Shown here: piece after piece, positions 2,731 to 63,699 of the stretch
Position numbering within the stretch: the stretch's first letter is position 1
How the letters are laid out: each line of letters begins with the position of its first letter
From: an uncultured Bacilli bacterium
Lineage (GTDB): Bacteria; Bacillota_I; Bacilli_A; RF39; UBA660
Direction of reading: 5' to 3'
NCBI GenBank assembly: GCA_934129885.1
Contig: CAKOWU010000001.1
Coordinates: forward strand, 19,750-83,749
Length of the DNA stretch: 64,000 nt
Position numbers and translations under genes: made by a program
Notes under the pieces: model-generated
Seen by the model: only the letters and a program-made list of their open reading frames with translations
Databases searched by the model: none
What the model was told of the DNA's origin: nothing

Positions 2731-2747
2731 TATCTCACCACCAAACT

Positions 2748-2763
2748 AGTCCTTAAGTTTAAT
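2748..2763. repeat. Inverted repeat A (hsdS 5' leader), copy 1
   Basis: agtccttaagtttaat is the exact reverse complement of 3867..3882. Similarity continues through the RBS and the first codons (ATGAATGyTCCTAAA) of both hsdS genes. Confidence 0.8.
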
Positions 2764-2825
2764 ACTTGAAAAGCAGTAGATAATTATTTTTATATATAAT
2801 ATCTTTGGAAAGGAGAAAGAATTTA

Positions 2826-3797: not shown

Positions 3798-3866
3798 CTT
3801 TTTCTTTTTGCAATAAAATCTCAAGAAAGTGTGTTATAATTAATATGTATGGTTTGGTATCTATTT

Positions 3867-3882
3867 ATTAAACTTAAGGACT
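3867..3882. repeat. Inverted repeat A, copy 2
   Basis: attaaacttaaggact, partner of 2748..2763. Confidence 0.8.
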
Positions 3883-3899
3883 TGAAAAGTGGTGATAAA

Positions 3900-5033
3900 A
3901 TGAATGCTCCTAAATTAAGATTTAAAGAATTTAATGATGAATGGATTACTTATAAATTTTATGATTTGGTTTCTATCATAAATGGTCAGGTTGATCCAAA
4001 CAAAAAAGAATATTGTAATTTACCACATATTGGTCCTGGTAATATCGAAAAAGAAACAGGAAGGTTATTAGAATATAATTTAGCAAAAGATGATAAATTA
4101 ATAAGTTCAAAATATCTATTCAATGAAAAATCTGTAATTTATGGCAAAATAAATCCTCATTTTGCAAAGGTTTGTTATCCAAAATTTGTAGGGTTATGTA
4201 GTGCAGATTCATATCCAATTAATCCAATAGAAGAAAAATTGACATCAACCTTTCTTTTATATTTATTATTGAATCCTAAATTTACTAAATTTGCTACTTC
4301 GGTATCAATGAGAACTGGAATGCCTAAAATAAACAGAGATGAATTAGGTATATATAAATTTACAATTCCTAAAATAAATGAACAAATAAAAATCGGTGAT
4401 TTCTTATCACTGTTAGATAAGAAAATAGAACTACAATCTAAAAAAATTGAAGACCTTAAGTTATTTAAAAAAGGACTTATATTGAGTTTGAAGAAAAATA
4501 GTTTTGATTGGCATACTGTATGTATAAAAGATTTATTTAAAATAACTAGAGGAGTAGTTATTCCAAAGAATGAATTAAGTGAATTTAAGAATGGTGAGTA
4601 TAAATATCCTGTTTATTCTTCACAAACCTCTAATCAAGGAACATTGGGATATTCTGATACTTTTGATTTTAACGGCAAGTATTTAACATGGACCACAGAT
4701 GGTGCAAATGCTGGAAAAGTCTTTTATAGAAACGGCAAATTTAGATGTACAAACGTATGTGGTGTATTATATGAAGATAATATAAAATTTACTAATGAAT
4801 TATTTGCCGAATTATTAAATTATGAAACTCCAAAGCATGTGTCATACGTAGGAAATCCCAAATTAATGAATAACGTAATGGCAGATATAAAAATTAAGAT
4901 ACCAAACGGTGATGTTCAAGAAAATACTTCCTTAATTATTAATACAATAAATAATAAGGTAAATTTAGAAAAGAACAAATTACTAAAATTTAAAGAATTA
5001 AAAAAAGGACTTATGCAAAATATGTTTGTATAA
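3900..5033 (+). CDS. hsdS: Type I restriction-modification specificity subunit (HsdS copy 2)
   Basis: ORF 3849..5033. The likely start is ATG 3900 (MNAPKLRFKEFNDEW), after GTGGTGA. It has the central DKKIELQSKKIEDLKLFKKG block and C-terminal LKKGLMQNMFV. The variable TRD halves are unrelated to those of copy 1. Confidence 0.85.
   Translation: MNAPKLRFKEFNDEWITYKFYDLVSIINGQVDPNKKEYCNLPHIGPGNIEKETGRLLEYNLAKDDKLISSKYLFNEKSVIYGKINPHFAKVCYPKFVGLCSADSYPINPIEEKLTSTFLLYLLLNPKFTKFATSVSMRTGMPKINRDELGIYKFTIPKINEQIKIGDFLSLLDKKIELQSKKIEDLKLFKKGLILSLKKNSFDWHTVCIKDLFKITRGVVIPKNELSEFKNGEYKYPVYSSQTSNQGTLGYSDTFDFNGKYLTWTTDGANAGKVFYRNGKFRCTNVCGVLYEDNIKFTNELFAELLNYETPKHVSYVGNPKLMNNVMADIKIKIPNGDVQENTSLIINTINNKVNLEKNKLLKFKELKKGLMQNMFV
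4443..4469. repeat. Inverted repeat B, copy 2
   Basis: Partner of 2191..2217, 27/27 identical in inverted orientation. Confidence 0.9.
4999..5017. repeat. Inverted repeat C, copy 2
   Basis: taaaaaaaggacttatgca, partner of 1667..1685. Confidence 0.85.
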
Positions 5034-5043
5034 ATCCTTTTTG

Positions 5044-5976
5044 TTATAAATATTTTCTAAATACTCTTTTAAAATCTTCAGCTTTATTTAATAACCATTC
5101 ATATCCTTTTGACAAGTCACTGTTTTTTAAATTCAACCTAAAATCACTTCTTATATCAACACTGCTAGCTTTACTTTCTTCTTTATAATCCCACTTAACA
5201 GAATATCCTAATTCAGTTTCTATTTCATTTTTATGTTCAAAGAATTTATTGTATAGACTTTTATTATTTTCAATCCATAATGAACAAGCAACTTCGCCGT
5301 TTTTATTAACAGTTAAATCTATGTGGCAATCGCTAGAACCAATAGCTAAACTATACCAATGTTGAGGTTGAGCTTTTCTAATAGAAAATGTAGTTCTGTT
5401 GTCAGATAAATACTCACTAAACCCTTGCCAAAAATTTAAATCAACAAGTTTCATTCCAGTTAATTCTGTATTACTTTGATTACTTCTAATAGTTTTTGTC
5501 CAATCATTTGGTTGACTTATTATTTCAAAATGAGGAGCTATCTCAGAATTTCCAATTTTAAACAATTCAATTTTTACTAAAAATAAGTTTATATTCTCAT
5601 CAGAATGCTCATTTAGCCATTCGATTGCTTGCTTATGTTCTTCATTATAATCTTTTACAATCCAAATAATTGTTTTAGCATCATATCCAGCTCCATATAC
5701 AAGAACTTTTCCTAAATGATCATGATTAGTTATTTCAAGTTGATTTTCAATAATAATATTTTCATTTGTGTCTTCGTTAACTGCTAGAATATCTAAAGAA
5801 TATTTTCCGACAGAAGCTTCTGTCTTTAAAACTTTTATTGAAATTCCTAGTTCATCACTTAATAGTTTAATATTTTGTTCTTTAGCTAACCAAGGTGTAA
5901 AATCATATTCTTCATTTTTCCAAATACTTCTTAGATCTTTTATCTTTTCAAGTTTTCCTAATTTAATTTCATTCAT
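5044..5976 (-). CDS. Nuclease-like protein embedded in the Type I R-M operon (PD-(D/E)XK-like N-terminal half, DUF4268-like C-terminal half)
   Basis: 310 aa, and its start overlaps the hsdM stop (5976). The N-terminal LDILAVNEDTNENIIIENQLE..HLGKVLVYG resembles the D..(E/D)xK/Q restriction-endonuclease-fold core. From memory, this architecture is common between hsdM and hsdS genes. The family assignment is unverified. Confidence 0.45.
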   Translation of the reverse strand: MNEIKLGKLEKIKDLRSIWKNEEYDFTPWLAKEQNIKLLSDELGISIKVLKTEASVGKYSLDILAVNEDTNENIIIENQLEITNHDHLGKVLVYGAGYDAKTIIWIVKDYNEEHKQAIEWLNEHSDENINLFLVKIELFKIGNSEIAPHFEIISQPNDWTKTIRSNQSNTELTGMKLVDLNFWQGFSEYLSDNRTTFSIRKAQPQHWYSLAIGSSDCHIDLTVNKNGEVACSLWIENNKSLYNKFFEHKNEIETELGYSVKWDYKEESKASSVDIRSDFRLNLKNSDLSKGYEWLLNKAEDFKRVFRKYL

Positions 5977-7535
5977 TAAATTTCCTCCAACCCTAGTTCT
6001 TTTAAATAAACATTAAGTTCTTTATCTACTTCTGCTATTTGTTTATCTATGTCTTTAAGATCTTGCTGAACAGCTTTAATATCTATTTCTTCTTCCTCTT
6101 CAAAAGTATCTACATATCTAGGAATGTTTAAATTATATTCATTTTCTTTTATTTCAGACATTGGAGCAACATGGCAATATTTTTCTATCTCAACTCTATT
6201 TTTATAAGTTTCAATAATTTTATCAACATCTTCATCTCTTAATCTGTTTTGATTTTTTCCAGCTTCAAAATCTTTTGATGCATCAATGAATAAAATATTA
6301 TCTTCGTTTTCTCTACATTTTTTAAATACTAATATACAAGTTGGAATACTTGTTCCGTAAAATATATTAGCTGGTAATCCAATTACTGCATCTAAATAGT
6401 TTTTCTCTTCAATTAAATATTTTCTAATTACTCCTTCGGAAGCTCCTCTAAATAAAACTCCATGAGGAAGAACTACTGCCATAGTTCCATTATCTGATAA
6501 TTGGTATATCATATGTTGAATAAAAGCAAAGTCTGCCTTTGATTTTGGTGCTAATTTACCATAAGCACTAAATCTTTCATCTTCTATGAATTTTGGATCA
6601 GCACTCCACTTTGCGGAGTATGGAGGATTAGCAACTATTGCATCAAATTTCATATCTAAATGTCTAGGCCTTTCTAAAGTATCATCATTTTTTATATCAA
6701 AATGTTTAAATGAAACTCCATGTAATAACATGTTCATTCGAGCTAAGTTGTAAGTTGTAGAATTAAATTCTTGTCCATAGTATGAACTTACCTTACATTC
6801 TTTACCTACTCTTAAAAGTAGTGAGCCAGATCCACAAGTTGGATCATATACACTTTGAAGTTTTGATTTATTTAACGCAACTAATTTAGCAAGAATTCTT
6901 GATACTTGTTGTGGTGTATAGAACTCTCCTGCTTTCTTTCCTGCTGATGCTGCAAAGTTTGAAATTAAGTATTCATATGCATCTCCTAAAACATCAATTT
7001 CAGCATCTTCATGATGAAAGTCTATATCATCTATTTTTAACATAATAGTTGAAATTAGTTTAGTTCTTTCTGCCTCTCCTCTACCTAATTTAGAGTTGTT
7101 TAAATCCATATCTTCAAATAGATTTTCAAAGTCATCCTCTGATTCATTACCTAAAGTAGATTCTGAAATAACATTAATTGCTTTAGCAAGCATTGAAATA
7201 TCAAATTTACCAGTCTTAATGTTATCAATTAATGTACTCCATAGATACTCTGGCTCTATACAATATCCTATATTTTCTTCCTCTATTAAATCAGACTTAA
7301 ACTCTTGTGCATGTTCTTTATCCTTAAACATATCAGCATATTTCATTTTATTTCTTAACATTACATTTTCAACGTAATTAACTAGATTTTCAGATAAATA
7401 CCTGTAGAATATTAATCCTAAGATATAATTTTTGAAATCATTAGCATCCATATTCCCTCTTAGGAAATTAGCAATACTCCAAAGTTGTTTTTGAAGTTCT
7501 GCTTGTTGTGATTGTTGTTTTTCTTCTCTTGACAT
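5976..7535 (-). CDS. hsdM: Type I R-M DNA methyltransferase subunit
   Basis: 519 aa with an HsdM N-terminal domain (LWSIANFLRG), SAM motif I DPTCGSGSLL and catalytic motif IV NPPYS. Confidence 0.95.
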   Translation of the reverse strand: MSREEKQQSQQAELQKQLWSIANFLRGNMDANDFKNYILGLIFYRYLSENLVNYVENVMLRNKMKYADMFKDKEHAQEFKSDLIEEENIGYCIEPEYLWSTLIDNIKTGKFDISMLAKAINVISESTLGNESEDDFENLFEDMDLNNSKLGRGEAERTKLISTIMLKIDDIDFHHEDAEIDVLGDAYEYLISNFAASAGKKAGEFYTPQQVSRILAKLVALNKSKLQSVYDPTCGSGSLLLRVGKECKVSSYYGQEFNSTTYNLARMNMLLHGVSFKHFDIKNDDTLERPRHLDMKFDAIVANPPYSAKWSADPKFIEDERFSAYGKLAPKSKADFAFIQHMIYQLSDNGTMAVVLPHGVLFRGASEGVIRKYLIEEKNYLDAVIGLPANIFYGTSIPTCILVFKKCRENEDNILFIDASKDFEAGKNQNRLRDEDVDKIIETYKNRVEIEKYCHVAPMSEIKENEYNLNIPRYVDTFEEEEEIDIKAVQQDLKDIDKQIAEVDKELNVYLKELGLEEI

Positions 7536-7544
7536 AACATCCTC

Positions 7545-10316
7545 CTATAAAAATTTCTTAAATATATTTTTAATAAATTCTTTTACTTTATTTTTTACAG
7601 TTCTTCTTTCCCAATAATCATCTATATCAATAGCCTCGTTTATTTCTTTATCTGGAAATATACTGCTATACTCATATTCATTAATTATTTCATTTAATTT
7701 TTCTAAATTAATTTTGTTATTTAAAGCAAATTTTTCTATTTCTTTTTCTCTTTGTTTATTCATATGTTCATTGAAAGCATCATCTATTGAATCATCTTCT
7801 TTTAGTGCAGGTAATATAGATTTTAAGAAACTCTTAATTAAATCTGCTTTTAAGAATAATTCATCATCTGTAATATTTGTTAACTTACTTTCAATATCTG
7901 CAATATCACGTTTCTTTTGTTCTTCATCTGTTAAATCAACATTTCTAATTAAATTAAGTATATATGAAACATTAATTCTATCAGTTTGAATTAATTCTAG
8001 TGAGAATGTAACATCATTTAGAATTGAGCTTTTTTCCTTATCATTAGAAATTTTTCTGTATAACTCATAATATTTACTTTTATAATCTTCAAACATTTGA
8101 GTATTAATAACAATATCATCATTATCTAAATCAAATTGATTAAAAGTTTTTAAACTAACAAGTATTTTAGCAACCTCTCTAAATGCTAAAATAAATTTTT
8201 TTATATCTTCTTCTCTTTCTAGTTCATCAACACTTTCTACTACTGGTGTAATTTCTAACAACTTATCTACAGCTTTATTAAACTTATCTAGGTAAGTATC
8301 ATATGGTGCCATTATTACGGTGTCAATACTATCAGTTTGAGAGAACAATTTAACTGCTTCATCTACTCTAGCTTTAGTAGTTCTATAACAAACTATGTTC
8401 CCAAATGGTTTTGTGTCAGATTCAACTCTATTTGTTCTTGAAAAAGCTTGAATTAAATCATGATATTTAAGAGGTTTATCAACATATAAAGTATTTAATC
8501 TTTTAGCATCAAATCCAGTTAATAACATATTAACAACTATAACTATATCAATTTCTGTGTTTTTTATTCTTTTACATATATCTCTAAAATAACCATCAAA
8601 ATTATGAGTAGAGAAATTTGTGTTGAACATTTTGTTATAATCTTCCATATATCTATCTAATACTTCTCTTGAATGTTCTGGATTTTTATCTAAATCTTCA
8701 TTCGCTCCGTAAGTAAATATCGCTCCTATTTTTAAATCATGATTTATTTTTTTAAAAGCATCATAATATTTTATTAATAACGGTATTGAAGATACAGTAA
8801 ATAATGCATTATATTTTCTATCTCTTGTTTTAATATTATGATGATCAATAATGTGCTGAGCAATTAAGCCTACTCTTTCATCTGCTAAGAATACTTCATC
8901 AGTATCTATGCTCTCTACCATAACATCTTCTTCTAATGCACCTGTATTTACTTCCATAAATTTTATATAATCAACATTAAATCCTAATACATTTTCATCT
9001 TTAATAGCATCTTTTATTAGGTATGTATGTAAGCATTTTTCAAATATATCAGCTGTACTTCTACCATCTTGTGATGGATTTTCTTTAAATCTAGGTGTGC
9101 CAGTAAATCCAAAGTATTGTGCTTTACTAAATGTCTTTGAAATCTGTTTATGCATATCACCAAATTGTGATCTATGGCATTCATCTATTATAAATACTGT
9201 TTTTAAATCTTTATATTTTTCCATAATATGTGTATATTTAGGATTAGTACAAGCGTTAGCCATTTTTTGAATTGTAGTTATAATTAATGGCTTAGAACTG
9301 TCTTTAATTTGTTCTATTAATTTGTCAGTTTGATTAGTCATATCAACACAACCTGGATCAAATTTGTTAAATTCATCTAAAGTTTGTTTATCCAAGTCTT
9401 TTCTATCTACTAAAAAGAATACTTGATTGATAGATGATTCTAAAGATAAAATTTGACTTGTTTTAAATGAAGTAATTGTTTTACCGGAACCAGTTGTATG
9501 CCATACATAACCATTATTACTTGTATCTAGTGCACGGGATACAATATTTTCAACTGCATATACTTGATAAGGTCTCATTACCATCAATATTTTTTCTGTT
9601 TCATTAATAATCATATATCTTGCAATCATTTTTCCTATATGACATCTATCCAAGAAAAATACACAAAATTGTTCTAAGTTATTAATTCTATCATTATTTA
9701 TATCAGTCCAATAAAAAGTAAATCCATAATTTAACTCTTGATCTCCATTTGCAAAATATTTAGTTTCTACCCCATTACTTATTACAAATAATTGAATAAA
9801 TTTATATAAGCCTTGGTATGAATGCCTTTTATATCTCTTAATTTGATTAAAGGCTTCTTTCATATCAATACCTCTACGTTTTAATTCAACTTGAACCAAA
9901 GGTAATCCATTTATTAAAATAGTTACATCATATCTATTTGTATATTTTCCATGGGCAGTGGTTTGATGAGTTACTTGAAATATATTCTTACACCAATCTT
10001 TTGTATTAAATAGTTCAATATAAACAATACTACCATCATCTCTTTGAATATCTTGTTTTTGTCTTAATTCTTTTGCTGATTGAAAGACACCTTTACCAGA
10101 TATTTTAACCATTAATCTTTCAAATTCTTTATCACTTAAATTTTTACCTTTAAGTTCTATTTTGTTATGAATATTGACTTGTTCTCTAAAATTTTGTTCT
10201 AATTCATTAACATCATTTATTACTACCTTAGAATAACCTTGCTTTACAAGTTGATCTATCATCCGCTCTTCTAGTCTTGCTTCACTCTCATATACTCCCA
10301 TCATTACACCTACCAA
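7545..10316 (-). CDS. hsdR: Type I R-M restriction endonuclease/helicase subunit
   Basis: 923 aa with Walker A TTGSGKT and the DEAD-like box FIIDECHRSQ. Helicase C motifs are present, and the N-terminal nuclease region has D..E.K-like VQVELKRRG. The exact start is uncertain (TTG 10316 or ATG 10304). Confidence 0.93.
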   Translation of the reverse strand: MVGVMMGVYESEARLEERMIDQLVKQGYSKVVINDVNELEQNFREQVNIHNKIELKGKNLSDKEFERLMVKISGKGVFQSAKELRQKQDIQRDDGSIVYIELFNTKDWCKNIFQVTHQTTAHGKYTNRYDVTILINGLPLVQVELKRRGIDMKEAFNQIKRYKRHSYQGLYKFIQLFVISNGVETKYFANGDQELNYGFTFYWTDINNDRINNLEQFCVFFLDRCHIGKMIARYMIINETEKILMVMRPYQVYAVENIVSRALDTSNNGYVWHTTGSGKTITSFKTSQILSLESSINQVFFLVDRKDLDKQTLDEFNKFDPGCVDMTNQTDKLIEQIKDSSKPLIITTIQKMANACTNPKYTHIMEKYKDLKTVFIIDECHRSQFGDMHKQISKTFSKAQYFGFTGTPRFKENPSQDGRSTADIFEKCLHTYLIKDAIKDENVLGFNVDYIKFMEVNTGALEEDVMVESIDTDEVFLADERVGLIAQHIIDHHNIKTRDRKYNALFTVSSIPLLIKYYDAFKKINHDLKIGAIFTYGANEDLDKNPEHSREVLDRYMEDYNKMFNTNFSTHNFDGYFRDICKRIKNTEIDIVIVVNMLLTGFDAKRLNTLYVDKPLKYHDLIQAFSRTNRVESDTKPFGNIVCYRTTKARVDEAVKLFSQTDSIDTVIMAPYDTYLDKFNKAVDKLLEITPVVESVDELEREEDIKKFILAFREVAKILVSLKTFNQFDLDNDDIVINTQMFEDYKSKYYELYRKISNDKEKSSILNDVTFSLELIQTDRINVSYILNLIRNVDLTDEEQKKRDIADIESKLTNITDDELFLKADLIKSFLKSILPALKEDDSIDDAFNEHMNKQREKEIEKFALNNKINLEKLNEIINEYEYSSIFPDKEINEAIDIDDYWERRTVKNKVKEFIKNIFKKFL

Positions 10317-10398
10317 TCAACATATATTTCAATTATATCACGAAAATTGTCATTTTTTGGCTTATGTCCACCAAAAAAGAAGAAATTAATATTAACTT

Positions 10399-11589
10399 CT
10401 AATCATTCTCTATTAATTCCTTCAATTTATTTATTTGCCTATTTAATAAAATACATAGTTTATTAATTCTATTATCTGAGTATCCTGTTATATCTTGATA
10501 TTCATGTAATAAATTATCAAACCATTCAGGAATATCTTCTAGTTTACTTATATCAATTCTTTTTATATCTTTTACTACTTTAATTATTTCATCAAATGGT
10601 TTAACTTCATAAAATAATTTACCATCACCAATAATATGCATTTCTTCTTCATCATAGTATTCAATATTTAAACTTTGACCATTATCAAATATTGGTGCTA
10701 CATCTAACCATTTTAAAGTATTAACATCTCTTATTATTCCAAAATTATTAAGATGTCTATCTTCATTCATAATTAGAAAATCTAAAATATACATATTTTC
10801 TATTTTTTCTCTTGCATCTTTTATTCCTTCTGATTCTAGTTTTTTAATATATTCTTCATAATCTTCTATACTATTATGTTTTTTCATATCATTTCTTATT
10901 TGATTACAAGTAATTAGTTCTGTATCTTTTGTTATGAAACAAGGACATTTTGATACAACCATATCTTTATAAGTATCTAGCGTGTATTCTACATGGTCAA
11001 AGCCTAAACACTCACATATTTCACTTGCTAATACTTCATTAAACGGTTGTAATGTTTCATTCTTATATCCACCTTTTAATAAATATCTTGTACCATTTTC
11101 AATAATCCACGCTTTTTTTAACATACCATCTGTAGTATTATTAGGTGTTTTCAAAGATGTAGCATTATGAATCATCTTACTGTTTTTAGAAAGTGATGCT
11201 TCCATAAATTCAGCATAATCAAAGTCATTATCAAAGAAATTAATATCTTCATATTTAATATTAGAATCTACTGGTTTTAACCAATACTGATCTGATAAAG
11301 ATAATCCAAAGGCTTTATCTAATAATTCACATGGGGCATTAATATTAAGTCTATGTAGTAATAAGTCTAGCTTATCTCTCCAAGATGGTATTCCTCTTCC
11401 TTTAAACCATTCACTTAAATTAGTTCTTAAAGAAGTATCATTAACATCTTCATTTTTATAAAAACTTTTTAAAATATATGGAGCATAATCAATATTATAA
11501 ACATCATAAATACTAGTAAATACTCCTGTTGCAGAATCATATTCTGTTAACATTACTTCTTTATTTTTATTCATTAAAGTACATTTCAT
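10399..11589 (-). CDS. HipA-like Ser/Thr kinase (toxin-type), no adjacent HipB/HTH partner
   Basis: 396 aa. N-terminal part is WFKGRGIPSWRDKLDLLL..GLSLSDQYWLKP. The kinase catalytic loop is MNEDRHLNNFGII (HipA N.D.H..N signature), followed by APIFDNGQSL. It has its own extended -10 promoter (TGgTATAAT) upstream. Confidence 0.7.
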   Translation of the reverse strand: MKCTLMNKNKEVMLTEYDSATGVFTSIYDVYNIDYAPYILKSFYKNEDVNDTSLRTNLSEWFKGRGIPSWRDKLDLLLHRLNINAPCELLDKAFGLSLSDQYWLKPVDSNIKYEDINFFDNDFDYAEFMEASLSKNSKMIHNATSLKTPNNTTDGMLKKAWIIENGTRYLLKGGYKNETLQPFNEVLASEICECLGFDHVEYTLDTYKDMVVSKCPCFITKDTELITCNQIRNDMKKHNSIEDYEEYIKKLESEGIKDAREKIENMYILDFLIMNEDRHLNNFGIIRDVNTLKWLDVAPIFDNGQSLNIEYYDEEEMHIIGDGKLFYEVKPFDEIIKVVKDIKRIDISKLEDIPEWFDNLLHEYQDITGYSDNRINKLCILLNRQINKLKELIEND

Positions 11590-11752
11590 AGGAATTCATC
11601 TCCTTTTCTATATACTATTATACCATACTTATATTTTCTAACAGATTCTATTTTCTTAGAAAAAGAAAAATAGGGCTCTACCGCTAGATAGTACCCTTGC
11701 AAAAGTTAATTATACTTTTTCCTTGCATAACTAATACATCTAAATAGATTAA

Positions 11753-12598
11753 TTACTTTTTATCAAACAATTCTTCTACAATTAAATCTCTTGAATGTAA
11801 GTTATTATTCTTACCTAATAATAAATTCTCATAAAATTTAACTAAATAACTACTATCTTCTTTTACATTCAAATAATTATTGAAATAATTACTTCTTACT
11901 AAAGCATTTCTAAAATAAACTGATTTATCTTTAAATAAAGTATTATCTACATTATAACCCAAACTAATTAAATATTTTTCAATAAATAATGCTGTTGTTC
12001 TAGTATTACCTTCTCTAAAAGGATGTACTTGCCATATATTAGAAGAAAATTTAGTTATATTATTAATAACTTCGACTATATTCATTTCTTTATAATTTTT
12101 TTCTAATTCTTTTGATATATCATATTCTAATGATGCTGTTAAAGTAGTACAATCTCCGTACGCAACTGAATCATTATTAAGCATTTTTTCATGTTTAGAA
12201 AAATCTATTTTTCTAAATTCACCAGCGAACTCATAAATATCCTGAAATAAAAATTTATGAACATATTTTAAATAATCAACTGATAAATCAAAATCATCTT
12301 TATTTAATAGTTCAACTATTCTAGTAGATACAAAATCACATTCTAACTCACTATGATTTACTTCGTTTTTATTTTCCTTTTCAATGTAATATTCTCTTAG
12401 TTCTTTTTCTACTTCTTCAATAGTTAAATTACCTTGTACTTCTTCTTTTAATAGTTTTTCTAAGTATTTAGAAGGTTTTAAATTATCTACTTCTTGAAGA
12501 CCAATAGCCATATCCCATTGTAATTGTTTTATATAATTATTAGATTTATACTGTTCTTCATATTCATTAACACTTGAATCTAAATCTTTTTCATTCAT
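11753..12598 (-). CDS. Fic/DOC family protein (AMPylase-type)
   Basis: 281 aa with the Fic motif HPFREGNTRTTALF (HxFx[DE]GNxR). The N-terminal segment WDMAIGLQEVDNLKPS is reminiscent of a fused VbhA-like inhibitory module (uncertain). Confidence 0.8.
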   Translation of the reverse strand: MNEKDLDSSVNEYEEQYKSNNYIKQLQWDMAIGLQEVDNLKPSKYLEKLLKEEVQGNLTIEEVEKELREYYIEKENKNEVNHSELECDFVSTRIVELLNKDDFDLSVDYLKYVHKFLFQDIYEFAGEFRKIDFSKHEKMLNNDSVAYGDCTTLTASLEYDISKELEKNYKEMNIVEVINNITKFSSNIWQVHPFREGNTRTTALFIEKYLISLGYNVDNTLFKDKSVYFRNALVRSNYFNNYLNVKEDSSYLVKFYENLLLGKNNNLHSRDLIVEELFDKK

Positions 12599-12649: not shown

Positions 12650-13167
12650 CTATTTATTATCATTTATATATTCAATTTTTTTATGTGTATTCTTTGAAAT
12701 AATAGAATGAATTATATTTGGTGGGCAAAAATTTTCCATTCTTCTATTATCAACTATTTCTTGTATTTCAACCAAATCGTCAATGTTTTTAGCTTTATTT
12801 AATAAGCATTTAGCAACCTCAACATTTTTGTCAATTAAAAAATAAGCTTTAATTTTGTCAATAAAAAATATAATTATACTAATAAATGGTATAAATCCAG
12901 CTAATAATTCTATTATTTTAAATTTCAAAAGAATACAAATCGTTACATACAAGCATAATAATAATATTAAAGTTACTCCAATAAATGATAAATAAATCTT
13001 TGAAATTTTTTTATCTCAATATAAATTTTGTTTCTGCATAGATTTTATTACTTCAACTTCACCACTTTTGCCTTCATCAAAATACCAATCTTTTAATCCA
13101 GGTGGCTTTGATTTACCATTATTATTCACTTGATGATTATAATCTTTTCTTTTTTTGCTCAACACAT
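12650..13167 (-). pseudogene. Small membrane protein gene interrupted by an in-frame TGA (12953..12955)
   Basis: The frame reads ..GLIYDVLSKKRKDYNHQVNNNGKSKPPGLKDWYFDEGKSGEVEVIKSMQKQNLY-TGA-DKKISKIYLSFIGVTLILLLCLYVTICILLKF.. and continues into track ORF 12650..12952. A possible GTG/TTG start overlaps the stop of the upstream ORF. Boundaries are approximate. Confidence 0.35.
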
Positions 13168-13482
13168 CATAAATAAGTCCTTTGTAATACCACTAAATCC
13201 AAAAAGACTATAGTCAAAATACTTCTTTAAATTAGCTCCTTTAACAATATCTTTCCTTATAAAACATAAGAGCAAAGCATTAACCCCTACCATAAAACCA
13301 TTTACTATTATTTTTATTATGGAATTTTTTATTTCAAAAAAATCAAAAATACATATAAATAGAGTTAACACTACACTTAAATTTTCCAATCAATTAACTC
13401 TGTTGTAATAAAACCTTTGACTATATAGTATATCCAACATATCTTTTTCGTTTTTCTTTTTAAAAAAATTAGTTTTTTTCAC
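13159..13482 (-). pseudogene. Small membrane protein gene interrupted by an in-frame TGA (13390..13392)
   Basis: Strong RBS AGGAGGG, then 6 nt, then GTG 13482. The frame reads VKKTNFFKKKNEKDMLDILYSQRFYYNRVN-TGA-LENLSVVLTLFICIF.., in frame with track ORF 13159..13389. Confidence 0.35.
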
Positions 13483-13695
13483 CAAAATCCCTCCTGAAAT
13501 ATTTTTCTAAAGTTAAAATGTTTGGATCATTCTTACAAGCAAGAATAAAGTTTTTATGACATTTTTTAATTTTTTGATTACTTCCACATGGCCCTTTGTA
13601 TTAGGAATTTTGGTGGTTTTTCTGAGCACTCGGCTCATTAATTCGGCACTTGGTTGCACCCCAGAGCACTCCATAGCACTCGGTAAAACTAGCAG

Positions 13696-13722
13696 AACGT
13701 ATCTAAAAACATATCTAAAATT
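13696..13722. repeat. Inverted repeat flanking the dual-HEPN gene, downstream copy
   Basis: aacgtatctaaaaacatatctaaaatt. The reverse complement of 15877..15901 is aacgtatctaaaatatatctaaatt. The first 13 nt are identical, then a 1-2 nt indel, then 9 more identical nt. Confidence 0.8.
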
Positions 13723-13758
13723 TTCTATTGTTGAATCTTTTCCACATTATTAATAATT

Positions 13759-15798
13759 CTATCTTACATGTTTGCTAAAGTTTTGATTATCATTCAAAAT
13801 TGAATTAATAAATTTAGGTTGATTAATTGTTTTCAAAAGATCTCCAAGCGATATTGTGGCATCAAATTGTATCTTTCCATCATATCTATCATAAAAGTGT
13901 AATTCTGTTGACATAATATCGTTAATACTTTTAATATTTACCGTTAAAAACCCATGTGCTAAACACTCTCTCATTCTATTAAGTAAATCTACATTGGTGA
14001 TTGCAAATTCTTCATCTATCCCAATCCCATCTATTATATTGCCAACACCACTTACTTGATTTTTTGTTTTGATTAATCTATTTTCACATCTATTAATTTG
14101 TTTTTCTACATCTCTATAATCTTCTTCTTTTAAAGTGTGAGTTGATGAAGCTTTTAATAATGATGTATAGATTAATCTATAATCACTTTCCTCTCTTGAT
14201 ATTTCATAAAAATTACCAACCTTGGAATCAAGATATTCCTTATAAAATTTTAATGGAAATCTTAAATTTTTAGCATCTATATTAGATTTATTTTGATTGT
14301 AACAAAACAATAATAAATTGTTTAATAGTGATGTAATTACTAATTCAATTTTTGATTTATATTTTATATAATCTGACGCATTGTTTTGTAAATCATCATT
14401 ATCAAAGTGGCCTGTTTTAAGCATTTCATACATATTCTTTTGAAAATAATAGACTTTGTTATATCTTTGATAAATTAAATTATTTATAATTTGAATTTGG
14501 GTAGTCTTAGATAATGAATAAAAATACTGTTCGTTTAGTTCTTGTATATTGTTAATTATATATTTAACATCTTTATCTGTTAAATTCTCAAACTTTGGAT
14601 CTTTAGAAATTATTAAATGCCTTTTAATTCTAGAATTAAACGTCCTAATAATCATATCCCTTGGTACTGCTGAGTTATAAATGTTATTATTACTAAGTGT
14701 TGTTATATAACTAATATCCAAACCAAAATCATTATCTAATCTTCTTTGAATATCTGAATCATTGTATTCTCTTAAAGAATAATCTCCAATACCAAATATT
14801 TCTAATTTTCTTAGATATTCTTCCAATGTTTCCTTATTCATAGAATTATTGTAATAATTGTCCATTCCAGAAAGTAATATTGGAAAAGCTCCTTCTAAAT
14901 AATAATAATCATATAATTGATTAAACAGAAAAATAATATCTTTTTTATTCAAAATAATATTTAATTTATTCTTACCCTCGTTATAAAATTCAATATTACC
15001 ATTTTCTAAAACCTTATAATTTGAATGTGCAATACAGTTTCTAATCATTTTAATAACTTTTTTATAATCTATTTCATTATTGCTCAAAATTGAATTATTT
15101 GTTTGTTTTAAAGATTCACTGTCATAGTATGATAAATATCTCAAAATTCTTCTAAGGCTTCTTTCTATATATTCAGGAACTAAATTTAATTTATCATCAA
15201 GCATTAATAATTGACTACTTAAAAAAATCATATCTAAATTATTATCAACATTACTATAATTTTCACTTAATGGGCCAATATGACTAAGCACTTCGCTAAT
15301 TAACGCTTTATCTCCATTCTCTATTGAAAGATTATTCAATATATTTAATAGTGCTTTGACATTTGAACTTGCATAATCTAACATAATATTATTTGAAATG
15401 CCAGTTGTGGGAGTGCTATCTTCTTGGCTTGGAGGAATGATATTATTTGTTTCATGCTTTTTATAAAATATATTTATATCTGCTTCTGGGCTAAATATGT
15501 CAATTCTACTTTCTTTGTTATCATCAATAACCGTACACATAAATTGAGTTGTTGTATCAATTCCAAAATTTTTTAATTTATCCACACTATATAAATCATC
15601 AGCAATTATTTGATTTATAATTGTTGAAATGCTAATACCATTAATTTCTGATACTTCAACCATTTTTCTATTTTCTACTGGCAAATAAAAATTATATGCA
15701 TATAATTTGCCATCTTCTATTATAAATTTAAGGGCTAACATTATTTTTGTTTTACTGTCTATAATTGTAATTAAAGTATCGTACCTATCTATTTTCAT
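13759..15798 (-). CDS. Dual-HEPN protein (two R-x4-H motifs in one chain); predicted RNase of unknown family
   Basis: Track ORF 13759..15843 (694 aa from TTG). The likely start is ATG 15798 (MKIDRYD), 5 nt after AGAGGTG. Motif 1 is IRNCIAHSNY (nt 15025..15042, aga aac tgt att gca cat). Motif 2 is MRECLAHGFL (nt 13954..13971, aga gag tgt tta gca cat). CDS confidence is high, but the functional call is inference. Confidence 0.6.
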   Translation of the reverse strand: MKIDRYDTLITIIDSKTKIMLALKFIIEDGKLYAYNFYLPVENRKMVEVSEINGISISTIINQIIADDLYSVDKLKNFGIDTTTQFMCTVIDDNKESRIDIFSPEADINIFYKKHETNNIIPPSQEDSTPTTGISNNIMLDYASSNVKALLNILNNLSIENGDKALISEVLSHIGPLSENYSNVDNNLDMIFLSSQLLMLDDKLNLVPEYIERSLRRILRYLSYYDSESLKQTNNSILSNNEIDYKKVIKMIRNCIAHSNYKVLENGNIEFYNEGKNKLNIILNKKDIIFLFNQLYDYYYLEGAFPILLSGMDNYYNNSMNKETLEEYLRKLEIFGIGDYSLREYNDSDIQRRLDNDFGLDISYITTLSNNNIYNSAVPRDMIIRTFNSRIKRHLIISKDPKFENLTDKDVKYIINNIQELNEQYFYSLSKTTQIQIINNLIYQRYNKVYYFQKNMYEMLKTGHFDNDDLQNNASDYIKYKSKIELVITSLLNNLLLFCYNQNKSNIDAKNLRFPLKFYKEYLDSKVGNFYEISREESDYRLIYTSLLKASSTHTLKEEDYRDVEKQINRCENRLIKTKNQVSGVGNIIDGIGIDEEFAITNVDLLNRMRECLAHGFLTVNIKSINDIMSTELHFYDRYDGKIQFDATISLGDLLKTINQPKFINSILNDNQNFSKHVR

Positions 15799-15876
15799 TC
15801 TTACACCTCTTACATAGATTATATCATATATCTTCACTATCAATTTTATTATTACTGATTTTGAGTAATAAATTAC

Positions 15877-15901
15877 AATTTAGATATATTTTAGATACGT
15901 T
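15877..15901. repeat. Inverted repeat flanking the dual-HEPN gene, upstream copy (overlaps the putative -35)
   Basis: Partner of 13696..13722. Its inner end abuts a candidate promoter TTGTAA-18-TAATAA on the minus strand. Confidence 0.8.
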
Positions 15902-15974
15902 TTGTATTGAATTTGAAAATTATGTCACAATATACGTTTTACTCTTATTTTATAAGGATTTAGAAGGTTTTTAT

Positions 15975-15985
15975 AACGTATCTAA
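15975..15985. repeat. Third copy of the 11-mer AACGTATCTAA
   Basis: Identical to 13696..13706 and the exact reverse complement of 15891..15901, 73 nt away. Together they form a second inverted pair upstream of the HEPN gene. Confidence 0.7.
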
Positions 15986-16030
15986 GACAATGAATACTCC
16001 AAAAATTACCTAAATATTGTAATCATAGAA

Positions 16031-16061
16031 AAACCCGCAATCCCTTATTTTGCACGGGTTT
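16031..16061 (-). terminator. Rho-independent terminator (ancestral secA terminator)
   Basis: Minus strand reads AAACCCGtgcaaaataagggattgCGGGTTTTTCT, a 7 bp GC-containing stem followed by a U-run. It lies immediately after the displaced SEC-C remnant. Confidence 0.7.
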
Positions 16062-16067
16062 GCGAGC

Positions 16068-16127
16068 TTATTTACCACATCATTGCTTATATTTTTTACC
16101 ACTGCCACAAGTAGTGGATGTTCCCAT
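16068..16127 (-). pseudogene. Displaced copy of the secA 3' end (SEC-C zinc motif) with a nonsense codon
   Basis: Minus strand reads ..C G S G K K Y K Q TGA C G K TAA, against the secA end C G S G K K Y K N C C G K TAG. There is a 20 nt exact identity (16087..16106 = 16730..16749). The TGA aligns with a Cys codon. Confidence 0.7.
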
Positions 16128-16312
16128 ATTATCAGTATTATTTATACTTATAGTATTATTCGTATTTCCTTATTTGTCAGACTAGGTAACATCTATATTA
16201 TTTGTATTTATGATATTACCTGTACTATAAGTATTTCTCCAATGTGGACATATTGTGGACATTGTCCACATCCGTTCACTTGCTACGATTATATAAAATA
16301 TATTATTTAGTG

Positions 16313-16564
16313 TCAACCATGGCCTTCCATAATTTTATCTACAGACAATTCTTTTATCAAATTAATGTCATAATCGTTTAAACACTCATTATGTTCAACA
16401 AAAAAAGATTCTTGTTTATTATCTCTTATATTATAAGTGAATACTGATATAAAAACTTCATCATAATTTTGATTAAATTTTTCATTACTTTCTTCAAATT
16501 GTCTTTCAAACTCTAATCTTTTTTCATTTTTTATAATTTTTAAATAGTATAATTGCCAACACAT
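16313..16564 (-). CDS. Hypothetical 83 aa protein (cargo of the cassette inserted in the secA 3' end)
   Basis: Track ORF 16313..16594. The likely start is ATG 16564 (MCWQLYYLK), 5 nt after GAGGAGG. No recognisable motif. TGA stop. Confidence 0.5.
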   Translation of the reverse strand: MCWQLYYLKIIKNEKRLEFERQFEESNEKFNQNYDEVFISVFTYNIRDNKQESFFVEHNECLNDYDINLIKELSVDKIMEGHG

Positions 16565-16710
16565 ATGTACCTCCTCAAAAAAAGATGTCAACAAATTTTA
16601 TTTTGCTGACATCCTTTAATTTCAATGAATTTCGTCCACATTTTTATTTATTGGTTGACAAACAACAAATTTGTTACCTTTTTTTAATTCATCTTTTCCC
16701 TTATTTTATG

Positions 16711-19203
16711 CTACTTCCCACAACAATTTTTATATTTTTTACCACTGCCGCAAACGCAGGGCTCATTACGGCCTATTTTTTGCACTCTTTTTGGTGATTG
16801 TTTTTTTATTTTGTTATTGTCTTCTACGGCTGTACCTTTGATTACTTGCTTTCTTTCTGTGTTTTGTCTAATTTCAGCATGTAGTAAAAATCTTGTGATG
16901 TCGGTGTCAATAGTATCTAATAAATCGTCAAATTTTTCATACCCTTCAGCGGTGTAGGCGCGAAGAGGATTTTCTTGTCCATATCCTCTTAAGTGAATTC
17001 CTTCTCTCAAAACGCTCATTTCATTTATGTGGTCCATCCAGTGAGTATCGATTACTCTTAATGAAACGGCTTTTTCAAATTCATTTCTAACTTCTTCTGG
17101 AATGTCACTCATTCTATTTTCGTATTCTTCGGTAACAGCTTCATAAATGGTATTTGTAAGCCCATCTGCATCTAGTTCGTTAAGTTCGTCTAATTCCAAT
17201 TTTTCTTTAAGGAGGTTTTGGTTTACTGACTCTAATATTTCGCTGACATCTAGTCCTGTTAATTCACCATTTTCGTCGGTATGGTCTTTAACGAAGGTTT
17301 CTATATGGTCATAGAAGTTTTTTAGAACTATGTCGTGAATGCTGTCACTATCTAGTATAGCATTTCTTTTATCATAGATAATACCTCTTTGGTTATTTAA
17401 GACGTCATCATATTCTAGCAAGTGTTTACGGGTATCAAAGTTATTACCTTCAACTCTTTTTTGAGCAGATTCAATTGATTTAGATAATGATTTACTTCTT
17501 ATTGAAAGTTCGCCATCAAAGCCAACTCTTTGAAGTAATGCTTTGGCACTATCGGTACCGAATCTTACCATAAGTTCGTCTTCAAAACTTACGCAGAACT
17601 GGGTCATTCCTGGGTCTCCTTGACGGCCGGCACGACCTCTTAACTGGTTATCGATACGTCTTGATTCATGTCTTTCGGTTCCTAACACACATAGTCCACC
17701 AAGTTCTTTTACGCCTTCGCCTAGTTTGATATCGGTTCCACGTCCTGCCATGTTGGTGGCGATAGTTACCGCTCCTTTTTGACCGGCTTTGGCAATGATT
17801 TCGGCCTCTCTAGCATTATTTTTGGCATTTAAAACTTCATGTGGAATTTTTTCTTTTTTTAACATGTTACTCAAAAGTTCACTGTTTTCAACAGCAATTG
17901 TTCCGACTAGAACGGGCTGACCTTTACTATGTCTTTCTTTGATTTCTTTTACGATAGCAGAGTATTTACCAGCGGCAGTGGCGAATATTAGGTCTCCATA
18001 ATCTTCTCTGATGACTGGCTTATTGGTAGGTATTTGGATAACATACATATTGTATATGTCTCTGAATTCTTCTTCTTCTGTTTTGGCTGTTCCTGTCATT
18101 CCTGATAGTTTTTTATACATTCTAAATAGGTTTTGGAACGTTATTGTTGCGAGGGTTTTGGTTTCTTCATTTATTTCTACGCCCTCTTTGGCTTCGATTG
18201 CTTGATGCAGACCCTCTGAAAAGTTTCTACCTGGCATTAGTCTTCCAGTGAACTGGTCAACGATAACTATTTTGCCATCTTGAATGACGTAATCAAAATC
18301 TCTTTTCATACTGTAGTTAGCACGAAGTGACTGGTTTATGAAGTGCACTAGAGTTGTATGTTCTATATCATATAGGTTTTTAATGTTGAAGTAACTTTCG
18401 GCTTTTTTTATTCCTTCTTCATCTAGTGATACGGCTTTTGTTTTTTCATCATATATATAGCCTTTATTTTCTTTTAGACCTTTTACAAATTTATCTGCTT
18501 GCATATAGAGATTTGCAGATTGCATTTTACCACCAGATATTATAAGTGGTGTTCTAGCCTCGTCTATTAGGACTGAATCAACTTCATCTATGATGACAAA
18601 GTTTAATGGTCTTTGAACTCTATCTTCGGCTTTTACTACCATATTATCTCTTAAGTAGTCGAATCCTATTTCGTTATTGGTTGAGTACATGATATCACAG
18701 TTATAGGCTTCTTTCTTTTCGGCTCTTGAGTATTCTCTATAGTTTACCCCAACTGTAAGGCCAAGGAATTCATATATTTTTCCCATCCACCCGGCATCTC
18801 TACCTGCTAGATATTCATTGACGGTAATGATATGCACGCCTTTTCCCGTTAAAGCATTAGCGTAGGCTGGTAATACTGAGGTAAGGGTTTTTCCTTCTCC
18901 GGTTTTCATTTCTGAAATATTACCATAGTGGATTGCAAGTCCTCCTAGTATTTGGACGTAGTATGGTTTTTCACCAATAACACGGTAGGCTGCTTCTCTT
19001 GCTGTTGCAAAGGCTTCTACTAGGATATCTTCTACGTCTGCACCTTGTTTTATTCTTTCTTTAAATTCTACTGTTTTGCCTTGAAGTTCTTCGTCTGTTA
19101 GTTTAGACATTTCTTCATCTAAAGCGATGACTTCGTTTGCAATAACTTTAAAACGTTCTAATTCTTTATATTCATGATCAAATATTTTTTTTAAAAAGTT
19201 CAT
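16711..19203 (-). CDS. secA: Preprotein translocase ATPase SecA
   Basis: 830 aa with MKTGEGKT Walker A, the DEVDSVLIDEARTPLIIS DEAD motor, and the C-terminal zinc motif CVCGSGKKYKNCCGK. Confidence 0.98.
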   Translation of the reverse strand: MNFLKKIFDHEYKELERFKVIANEVIALDEEMSKLTDEELQGKTVEFKERIKQGADVEDILVEAFATAREAAYRVIGEKPYYVQILGGLAIHYGNISEMKTGEGKTLTSVLPAYANALTGKGVHIITVNEYLAGRDAGWMGKIYEFLGLTVGVNYREYSRAEKKEAYNCDIMYSTNNEIGFDYLRDNMVVKAEDRVQRPLNFVIIDEVDSVLIDEARTPLIISGGKMQSANLYMQADKFVKGLKENKGYIYDEKTKAVSLDEEGIKKAESYFNIKNLYDIEHTTLVHFINQSLRANYSMKRDFDYVIQDGKIVIVDQFTGRLMPGRNFSEGLHQAIEAKEGVEINEETKTLATITFQNLFRMYKKLSGMTGTAKTEEEEFRDIYNMYVIQIPTNKPVIREDYGDLIFATAAGKYSAIVKEIKERHSKGQPVLVGTIAVENSELLSNMLKKEKIPHEVLNAKNNAREAEIIAKAGQKGAVTIATNMAGRGTDIKLGEGVKELGGLCVLGTERHESRRIDNQLRGRAGRQGDPGMTQFCVSFEDELMVRFGTDSAKALLQRVGFDGELSIRSKSLSKSIESAQKRVEGNNFDTRKHLLEYDDVLNNQRGIIYDKRNAILDSDSIHDIVLKNFYDHIETFVKDHTDENGELTGLDVSEILESVNQNLLKEKLELDELNELDADGLTNTIYEAVTEEYENRMSDIPEEVRNEFEKAVSLRVIDTHWMDHINEMSVLREGIHLRGYGQENPLRAYTAEGYEKFDDLLDTIDTDITRFLLHAEIRQNTERKQVIKGTAVEDNNKIKKQSPKRVQKIGRNEPCVCGSGKKYKNCCGK

Positions 19204-39353: not shown

Positions 39354-39427
39354 AGGGACATAATTCAGTGGTAGAATGATGGTCTCCAAAACCATTCACG
39401 AGGGTTCGAGTCCTTCTGTCCCTGCCA
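39354..39427 (+). tRNA. trnW: tRNA-Trp (anticodon CCA)
   Basis: Acceptor stem AGGGACA/TGTCCCT, D arm ATTC-AGTGGTA-GAAT, anticodon stem ATGGT/ACCAT with loop CTCCAAA. T arm GAGGG-TTCGAGT-CCTTC, discriminator G, encoded CCA. Confidence 0.9.
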
Positions 39428-63537: not shown

Positions 63538-63699
63538 TATTGTATCCTCCTTTCGCCTATATCTTTAGTATAGACTTGCTCCGTGTAAAAACCTAAGTAC
63601 GCAAGTGATTATTAACAACTTAACCTAGCGTCTCAGCAACCTCACACATCATCGCAGCCACACATCCAAAAGTATACAATAAAATTGTATGAATTACAA
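63538..63699 (-). promoter_or_regulatory. S10 operon promoter and about 125 nt structured leader
   Basis: Minus strand has TTGTAA (63699..63694), 17 nt spacer, TATACT (63676..63671). It is followed by a visibly GC-richer leader (..GGATGTGTGGCTGCGATGATGTGTGAGGTTGCTGAGACGCTAGG..) before the RBS AAAGGAGG. From established knowledge, S10 leaders are L4-autoregulated in some bacteria. This is not verified here. Confidence 0.35.

Follow-up and report, generated by a model that had tools for sequence, protein, structure and literature searches.

Results

The gene and its two HEPN motifs

The 64,000-nucleotide (64-kb) stretch analysed here, hereafter called the window, belongs to contig CAKOWU010000001.1 (assembly GCA_934129885.1) of an uncultured Bacilli bacterium. 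On its minus strand, between secA (16711-19203) and a run of co-oriented genes that follows downstream on the same strand, lies a gene for a protein with two R-x4-H motifs of the HEPN ribonuclease (RNase) type in a single polypeptide, which we refer to as the dual-HEPN protein. The downstream run comprises fragments of an S_4TM-like gene, a Fic gene, a gene with a HipA_C domain, and a Type I restriction-modification (R-M) system with a DUF4268 gene. The coordinates of the gene, its domains and the surrounding signals are given in Table 1.

The arginine and the histidine of the HEPN motif are catalytic residues, and HEPN RNases cut RNA independently of metal ions, producing 2',3'-cyclic phosphate ends. 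Both motifs of the original prediction, RNCIAH and RECLAH, translate exactly at the positions listed in Table 1. In 20,000 protein shuffles, at least two generic R-x4-H motifs arose in 4.8% of cases, and at least two motifs of the form R[NDEH]xxAH in none. The R and H positions also held in the homologues: the two motifs were invariant in 30 homologues (38-98% identity), and both were found in every full-length relative down to 21% identity, including forms of 750-860 and 460-590 amino acids (aa) that share 21-30% identity. When the most diverse members were aligned (24 sequences), no columns stayed invariant except R253, A257, H258, S259, N493, R610, A614 and H615. The motif forms across the family are R[NDKH]xx[AGC]H for motif 1 and R[NDEH]xx[AG]H for motif 2, in line with the HEPN pattern R-x4-6-H with a polar residue (N/D/H) directly after the arginine. 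The dual-motif observation is real and lies far beyond chance.

The open reading frame (ORF) listing gave a mechanical ORF of 694 aa with a TTG start (13759..15843, minus strand). The actual product is most likely a 679-aa protein beginning at the ATG, since all of the 30 aligned homologues (30/30) begin at the residue equivalent to this codon and the putative Shine-Dalgarno sequence AGAGGTG precedes it. The closest relative (P0001) is also 679 aa long, and the identical protein was found on 18 public contigs. We use the numbering of the 679-aa protein, in which R253-H258 and R610-H615 correspond to R268-H273 and R625-H630 of the 694-aa ORF. Genetic code 4 was ruled out, the long housekeeping ORFs being intact under code 11. 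The gene had been credited with its own promoter and ribosome-binding site. The latter is present and a real intrinsic terminator lies upstream, predicted to insulate the gene from upstream transcription, but promoter-like sites were not enriched (37 seen, 34.6 expected from shuffled sequence).

Relationship to the pEK499_p136 family

The protein was unnamed in every library tried, in agreement with the original prediction, which could place it in no named family. Scans of the full-length sequence against Pfam, PADLOC, NCBIfam and PHROGs returned nothing significant, and matches to DUF7708, Prenyltrans and Cas11a (E 0.03-0.16; PADLOC Cas11a, E 0.068) were dismissed as noise. With hmmscan, a 73-aa fragment around motif 1 matched PF18736 (pEK499_p136) with an E value of 0.0014 (18.8 bits), and HEPN_MAE_28990 came second (E 0.024). 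The precomputed tables of a public protein collection list PF18736 for many members of the family, at E <= 1e-5 for the exact protein of the window and for a 586-aa relative (P0071).

Profiles were compared with hhalign, using half-alignments of the family drawn from 56 and 53 sequences and a pEK499_p136 profile of 87 sequences, that is, the founding WP_000528932.1 (166 aa, plasmid pEK499) and 86 relatives. The module around motif 1 (HEPN-1) matched the pEK499_p136 profile with a probability of 92% (E 7e-7), the module around motif 2 (HEPN-2) matched it with 73% (E 3e-5), and the two modules matched each other with 94% (E 1.3e-7, 91 columns). Reversed or column-shuffled controls gave probabilities of no more than 2% (E 0.025-0.7). 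All three alignments stay in register past R-N/D-x-x-A-H, through a strand V.V, a strand I.F.D, a strand ending in F..S and a helix. These comparisons indicate that both modules are homologous to each other and to the curated HEPN family pEK499_p136, and that the layout of the protein is an internal duplication of a HEPN domain of this type.

The dual-HEPN protein and the pEK499_p136 proteins share the phi-R-N-x-x-A-H form of the motif and the order of elements (helix, motif, beta strands, helix). However, pEK499_p136 proteins are single-domain proteins of ~155-170 aa, whereas the dual-HEPN protein has 679 aa with two diverged copies and, beyond the pEK499_p136 layout, an N-terminal beta domain, a middle domain and a helical hairpin. 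The two also differ in distribution: the retrieved pEK499_p136 relatives with organism names are mostly from Proteobacteria, whereas the dual-HEPN family comes only from uncultured gut Bacilli/Firmicutes. Since the pEK499_p136 length, architecture and Pfam threshold all failed, we suggest that the protein should be regarded as a tandem-duplicated derivative of pEK499_p136 and not as a member. Single-domain pEK499_p136 proteins are expected to need dimerisation. They carry the NCBI name 'HEPN family nuclease', and the 2013 survey of HEPN proteins tied the family to R-M and Pgl defence operons (PMC3710099).

Predicted structure

The AlphaFold2 model built from the 30-sequence alignment had a predicted local distance difference test (pLDDT) score of 91.7 and a predicted template modelling (pTM) score of 0.91, the latter indicating that the predicted multi-domain body is confidently packed. 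In agreement with the original prediction of a beta-looking N-terminal domain followed by a linker, the model is beta-rich up to about residue 112, and the linker that follows is poorly conserved. According to DSSP, R253 of module 1 lies in the last turn of helix 245-257, with H258 next to it, and a three-strand beta meander and a further helix (285-299) follow. Module 2 contains a long helical hairpin (~residues 516-589, nt 14032-14253); R610 lies in helix 595-614, with H615 directly after it, and is again followed by a three-strand beta meander and then by the C-terminal helices. In HEPN domains, helix 3 ends with the motif, and the histidine begins the loop that follows (PMC3710099). Both motifs follow this helix-3-end rule, with several helices before each, as judged from the secondary structure of the AlphaFold2 models.

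Structural neighbours were sought with Foldseek, for the full model against PDB and BFVD, and for a separately predicted HEPN-1 (pLDDT 81) against PDB. The top matches were coiled coils and helical hairpins. A sequence search of PDB with the family profile yielded only GCN4 coiled-coil chimeras, which matched the helical hairpin and were set aside. No Foldseek neighbour was significant, so the HEPN assignment rests on motif, profile and secondary-structure evidence.

Distribution and variation of the family

An exhaustive HMMER scan recovered 46 relatives among 1.84 billion cluster representatives, and a word-indexed search recovered 36 among 5.8 billion sequences; an iterated profile search with the 24-sequence diverse alignment yielded no new, more distant or named relatives. 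All members are unnamed or annotated as 'hypothetical protein', and the organisms named are uncultured Bacilli. A pattern search, which finds close relatives only, gave 7 loci among 185,579 GTDB species representatives, all in gut metagenome-assembled genomes labelled uncultured Bacilli or Firmicutes, or Clostridium sp. CAG:710.

The distance between the two motifs (320-396 residues) and the length of the C-terminal tail (68-77 residues) vary little among the relatives, whereas the region before motif 1 spans 160-391 residues. A constant core with a front of variable length suggests that the N-terminal region is an exchangeable module, and the N-terminal domain is a candidate sensor or regulatory module, because the short relatives lack it and the long relatives extend it. 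At one locus with a short form of 586 aa, which has no N-terminal beta domain (L026, 5047-9101), the gene is followed by genes of 87 and 1267 aa, neither with a Pfam match. At another (L009, 1043-7976), the gene for a protein with 43% identity (P0014) is preceded by co-oriented genes of 517, 1115, 77 and 510 aa, also with no Pfam match, and this run could be an unrecognised multi-gene system.

No conserved neighbour was found in 11 distinct genomic contexts. The 98%-identical P0001 always lies between secA and prfB, behind a gene pair coding for 252 and 80 aa; housekeeping genes surround the relatives with 40-45% identity, and the remoter relatives likewise have no shared neighbours. At two syntenic loci (L007 and L027), the HEPN proteins are 52% identical, against 75-78% for the flanking proteins. 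The genes have a G+C content of 21-25%, lower than that of the flank in 18/20 flank comparisons. Horizontal transfer, rapid divergence and patchiness, to which these observations point, are the usual signature of conflict genes.

A cassette at the 3' end of secA

Positions 13559-16109 of the window are 97.9% identical at the DNA level to positions 9690-12240 of a related genome (L001), over ~2.55 kb. The adjacent secA genes of the two genomes share 69% DNA and 67.5% protein identity, against 97.8% for the HEPN proteins. In L001, the cassette sits directly between secA and prfB, with no Fic, HipA or R-M genes; prfB is not present anywhere in the window. The core of the secA 3' end (the last ~42 nt, coding for SEC-C) occurs in three copies in the window and in three in L001 (8185-12360). 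The left (~300 bp) and right (~137 bp) ends of the HEPN cassette in L001 are common to an adjoining cassette carrying the 252- and 80-aa genes. These conserved flanks belong to the cassette and not to the protein, because a cassette with unrelated genes has them too. A two-gene system formed by the 252- and 80-aa genes with the HEPN gene was considered and dropped, as they lie on a separate cassette that is missing from the window.

In a further genome (L002, 6386-8494), genes for an HTH_17 protein, probably an excisionase, a tyrosine integrase with an Arm-DNA-bind domain and a relaxase are found immediately upstream of the same repeats. The AGTGCY units of the window fall inside the 137-bp right end common to the two L001 cassettes and are candidate recombinase arm-type sites; together with the ACRTATCTAAA units, they could serve as recombinase arm or operator sites. 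The region 3' of the HEPN gene folds no better than shuffled sequence (z -1.07).

The HEPN gene is accessory cargo on a 2.5-kb cassette that has no integrase; a tyrosine-integrase element targeting the secA 3' site probably mobilised the cassette in trans. The simplest reading of the repeats would be that integrase-less cassettes accreted at an attachment (att) site in the 3' end of secA. Integrative elements and cis-mobilisable elements (CIMEs) can accrete in tandem where housekeeping genes have their 3' ends, the CIME being a concept from streptococcal ICESt1/CIME work. The secA cassettes resemble them in having no integrase, in being bounded by direct repeats of the 3' end of the target gene and stacked in tandem, and in the presence of an integrase-bearing element at the same site in another genome (L002). 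They differ in their target, the SEC-C-coding 3' end of secA, and their mobility is deduced from sequence. No paper containing 'end of secA' turned up in a full-text literature search.

Between the true secA end and core copy 2, the window has a segment of ~600 bp (16111-16711), which holds the position of the 252+80-aa cassette in L001. It contains an ORF of 93 aa (16313-16594, minus strand) with no family (weak match to Phage_Gp111, E 0.005). A promoter-like site with the perfect form TTGACA-17-TATAAT lies in the segment at 16316-16288.

Table 1. Features of the dual-HEPN gene, its product and the secA 3'-end cassette (window coordinates)
Feature	Position	Strand	Basis or remark
Dual-HEPN protein, coding sequence	13759..15798	(-)	679 aa from ATG at 15798; stop TAG 13759-13761
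HEPN motif 1, RNCIAH (R253-H258)	15025..15042	(-)	translation; homologue alignments
HEPN motif 2, RECLAH (R610-H615)	13954..13971	(-)	translation; homologue alignments
N-terminal beta-rich domain, residues 1-112	15463..15798	(-)	DSSP of AlphaFold2 model
Pro/Ser/Thr-rich linker, residues 113-137	15388..15462	(-)	mean majority fraction 0.44, lowest of all regions
HEPN module 1, residues 138-304, helical bundle	14887..15387	(-)	secondary structure, hhalign, sub-threshold Pfam
Middle alpha/beta region, residues 305-474, joining the HEPN modules	14377..14886	(-)	DSSP of AlphaFold2 model; no family match
HEPN module 2, residues 475-679	13762..14376	(-)	DSSP of AlphaFold2 model; hhalign with controls
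Putative Shine-Dalgarno sequence AGAGGTG	15804..15810	(-)	5 nt 5' of ATG; read from sequence
Predicted intrinsic terminator, hairpin then UUUUU	16031..16069	(-)	-17.5 kcal/mol, z -3.7; 0/200 shuffles fold equally well
True secA 3' end, SEC-C motif (CGSGKKYK.CCG), core copy 1	16712..16753	(-)	repeated att-like core
secA 3'-end core copy 2, left cassette boundary	16069..16110	(-)	83% over 42 nt; L001 identity starts at 16109
secA 3'-end core copy 3, degenerate, right boundary	13560..13597	(-)	L001 identity ends at 13559
Upstream inverted-repeat arm, two ACRTATCTAAA units	15876..15904	.	further copy at 15975-15986
Downstream arm of the ACRTATCTAAA inverted repeat	13693..13721	.	begins 38 nt past the stop codon
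Five AGTGCY/GGTGCA units, 10-nt phasing	13625..13680	(-)	starts at 13680, 13670, 13660, 13650 and 13630

Neighbouring genes

The base composition of the window changes sharply: the first 16.7 kb have a G+C content of 23-27% (island ~25%), against 29-39% (~33%) elsewhere. The original prediction placed the gene in a defence island with Fic, a HipA-like kinase and a Type I R-M system; the co-oriented adjacency stands, but these genes do not form a conserved unit with the HEPN gene, the cassette occurring elsewhere without them. At 5044-12598, hsdR, hsdM and the DUF4268 gene are found, with a kinase-like gene with a HipA_C domain and Fic upstream of them, all co-oriented with the HEPN gene. No HipB-like gene was seen beside the HipA_C-domain gene, and the best NCBIfam similarity of Fic is to the VbhT/Fic adenylyltransferases. 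At 1651-5033, two inverted hsdS genes flank a tyrosine recombinase gene (2805-3797), and inverted repeats of 53-91 nt mark the beginning, middle and end of the hsdS genes (e.g. 2191-2243 versus 4417-4469, 94% complementary). Phase-variable, shufflon-type specificity loci of Type I R-M systems are laid out in this way.

The S_4TM-like gene (SMODS-associated 4TM effector; 12650-13389, minus strand) is read under code 11 as pieces of 76, 49 and 100 aa. It is probably a pseudogene, because an in-frame TGA splits it. A public gene call on another record (L024) reads through this TGA and gives a 171-aa product with a match to PF18159. A system of HEPN and S_4TM genes on L024 was considered and dropped, since L024 is the same DNA as the window and the S_4TM gene is fragmented.

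Comparison with Cas13 and other HEPN systems

The original prediction reported no CRISPR array in the window, and this was confirmed: TRF and a direct-repeat search detected no CRISPR-like array in all 64 kb, and Rfam reported only a tRNA (39354-39424) and an S10-Clostridia leader (63553-63660), with no CRISPR- or defence-linked RNA. The latter, a ribosomal-protein leader, fits a Firmicutes host. The further claim that the 64 kb contain no cas genes stands for the 10 neighbouring ORFs scanned, none of which matched a cas family; the search for cas genes did not extend to the whole window.

Like Cas13, including the compact Cas13an and Cas13bt, the dual-HEPN protein has two R-x4-H motifs per polypeptide, and the small Cas13 proteins are comparable to it in size. 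In Cas13, the two HEPN motifs come together in the same chain and make up one RNase site, and Yoon et al. 2024 traced the Cas13 HEPN domains to the AbiD/F-Swt1 group (PMC12165695). The modules of the dual-HEPN protein, in contrast, match PF18736 (pEK499_p136), and not Abi_2/AbiD/F or Swt1. Cas13 is found with a CRISPR array, whereas dual-HEPN loci have no array, no guide-RNA evidence and no Foldseek similarity to Cas13. The structural comparison gave no match at E <= 0.001: HEPN-1 drew Cas13b with an E value of only 7.2 and a probability of 0.03, the full model drew nothing, and none of the three Foldseek searches reached significance. As tests for an array, for structural similarity and for an AbiD/F-type HEPN lineage all came out negative, the dual-HEPN protein appears not to be a Cas13 relative, contrary to the kinship suggested in the original prediction, and its resemblance to Cas13 is most likely architectural and convergent.

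Two HEPN motifs in one chain had been taken as the defining architecture of Cas13. They are not unique to it, because the 2013 survey lists a HEPN dyad in Swt1 (PMC3710099 Table 1), which provides a second precedent for two HEPN domains per chain. Swt1 differs in being eukaryotic, in its fusion to a PIN domain, in its only partly conserved motifs and in its role in nuclear RNA surveillance, and there is no sequence match between it and the dual-HEPN protein. A literature search for tandem, dual or double HEPN outside Cas13, Las1 and Swt1 turned up nothing relevant.

The AbiD/AbiF proteins (Abi_2) are stand-alone, single-gene HEPN proteins of Firmicutes with a motif of the R-N-x-x-x-H type and defence contexts, and by analogy they may be taken as the role model for the mechanism proposed below. 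They differ in having one HEPN domain; Abi_2, one of the families that the original prediction had named for comparison, gave no match at E <= 10 with the full protein or with fragments, and Rfam showed no RNA of the RF03085 type. HepT/MNT and other HEPN toxin-antitoxin pairs also encode HEPN RNase toxins on mobile DNA, but these are single-domain toxins with an antitoxin, and no MNT or antitoxin gene lies beside any dual-HEPN member.

Discussion

Proposed function

We put at about 0.5 the probability that the dual-HEPN protein is a stand-alone, single-chain, sensor-gated RNase for defence or genetic conflict. In its role, it would be closest to the single-protein HEPN abortive-infection nucleases; its architecture is like that of Cas13 and its descent is nearest to pEK499_p136. 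The stand-alone abortive-infection or stress RNase of the original prediction is borne out insofar as the gene encodes a single chain with no array or conserved partner gene, and its functional role is a reasonable guess.

The HEPN site usually consists of two facing HEPN domains, provided by homodimers in most families and within one chain in Cas13 (PMC3710099; PMC12165695). In the proposed mechanism, the chain would be ordered as N-terminal beta domain, linker, HEPN-1, middle domain and HEPN-2, and the two R-x4-H motifs are predicted to pack together within it into a composite, metal-independent HEPN site, of the kind that other HEPN proteins would build by homodimerising. The non-catalytic parts (the N-terminal region, which varies in length, and perhaps also the middle domain and the helical hairpin) would hold this site closed until a trigger arrives, most likely attack by a phage or mobile element. 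The activated enzyme would then cleave cellular or invader RNA, leading to growth arrest, as in abortive infection. As no antitoxin or immunity gene was found, we assume that an RNase with the potential to be toxic is held in check intramolecularly. We infer the RNase activity, the intrachain pairing of the motifs, the autoinhibition and sensing, the defence role and the movement of the cassette from the features described above.

A more specific version of this proposal is tentative and, in our view, rather doubtful: that the family is a CRISPR-free, independent solution of the Cas13 type, arisen from pEK499_p136, acting as a single-gene antiphage system with N-terminal sensing and spread as integrase-less cassettes at the 3' end of secA. 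The sub-reading in which a non-CRISPR RNA guides or activates the protein is highly improbable.

Several observations weigh against a sensor-gated RNase for defence or conflict. No antitoxin or immunity gene is visible, and the genes of several homologues lie close together with housekeeping genes that run in the same direction, an arrangement that would suit a cellular role as well. No relatives were found by tblastn in 50,697 phage or 72,556 plasmid records, nor by a pattern scan of IMG/VR. PADLOC, PHROGs and NCBIfam contain no match to the dual-HEPN protein; the motif-1 fragment (18.8 bits) missed the PF18736 gathering cut-off of 26.6 bits, and full-length hmmscan gave no PF18736 match. Finally, Foldseek found no HEPN or Cas13 structure at E <= 0.001, either for the full model or for HEPN-1 alone.

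Alternative explanations

It is unlikely, though by no means negligibly so, that the protein is a lineage-specific enzyme of cellular RNA processing or turnover in small AT-rich gut Bacilli, with a role like that of eukaryotic Las1. Such an enzyme would be at home among the housekeeping genes with which homologues lie co-directionally at gaps of 10-118 nt, next to Memo/AMMECR1 or phosphoribosyl pyrophosphate synthetase and a peptidase S66, to FtsH and a penicillin-binding protein, or to 3-hydroxyacyl-CoA dehydrogenase and a tRNA synthetase. The syntenic position in L007 and L027, the lack of an antitoxin and the lack of copies in the phage and plasmid collections searched are also consistent with it. 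However, the cassette of 2.55 kb is 98% identical where secA is only 69% identical, and at the syntenic loci the protein has diverged far more rapidly than its neighbours (52% identity, against 75-78%). Its G+C content is below that of the flanks at nearly all of the loci examined, its location varies between lineages and its distribution is very patchy, with the 7 loci (close relatives only) in 185,579 species representatives and 46 clusters overall. These features argue for the conflict role over the cellular one.

A second alternative concerns geometry and not role. The HEPN modules may pair between chains, in a homodimer or a higher oligomer with at least two active sites, and we consider this improbable to a similar degree. 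Canonical HEPN nucleases homodimerise (PMC12165695; PMC3710099), and the long helical hairpin of HEPN-2 could be an oligomerisation element, but the monomer model is confidently compact (pTM 0.91) and a single composite site accounts at least equally well for the strict conservation of the two motifs together.

The protein might also be a toxin, either a selfish one for addiction to the cassette or its stabilisation, or an interbacterial one, instead of a phage-triggered defence, which seems to us quite improbable. HEPN domains are common as toxins (PMC3710099), the cassette is small and mobile with att-like core boundaries, and cargo of the toxin type (Fic, the HipA_C protein and the S_4TM effector fragments) lies nearby. 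Against this, no conserved adjacent ORF for an antitoxin or immunity protein was found in any context, Pfam, NCBIfam, PHROGs and PADLOC gave no match to a domain for secretion or delivery or to one of polymorphic toxins (scans that did not cover signal peptides), and many homologues show no signs of a cassette.

A Cas13-like effector guided or activated by a non-CRISPR RNA encoded nearby would accord with the two HEPN motifs per chain and the Cas13-like size, with the conserved, repeat-bearing cassette flanks in the window and with the proposal of Yoon et al. that RNA-guided capacity may predate the Cas13 lineage (PMC12165695), but it can be set aside as very improbable, as there is no repeat array and no Rfam match even at E <= 5, the conserved flanks are also found on a cassette with unrelated genes, the distant homologues leave no room for an RNA gene because they lie only 10-118 nt from their neighbours, the region downstream of the gene in the window folds no better than shuffled sequence, and the protein has no structural similarity to Cas13 and belongs to the pEK499_p136 and not the AbiD/F HEPN lineage.

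Significance

No major paradigm is changed by these results, as it is common to find HEPN RNases in defence islands, and likewise HEPN toxins in variable regions. What appears to be new is a rare family in which a predicted HEPN RNase takes the form of a single-chain double module on a mobile cassette. Cas13 has been proposed to stem from the fusion of two related defence HEPN genes (PMC12165695). If the two motifs of the dual-HEPN protein form one intramolecular site, the family would have reached the Cas13-defining architecture independently, by a second route, and this parallel case would offer a natural comparison of how HEPN pseudo-dimers are gated without a guide RNA. The family would also add a candidate single-gene defence system from uncultured gut Bacilli, which are missing from the defence catalogues now in use (PADLOC: nothing), and the cassettes stacked at the secA 3' end are a possible hotspot of accessory genes in these bacteria that may merit mining.

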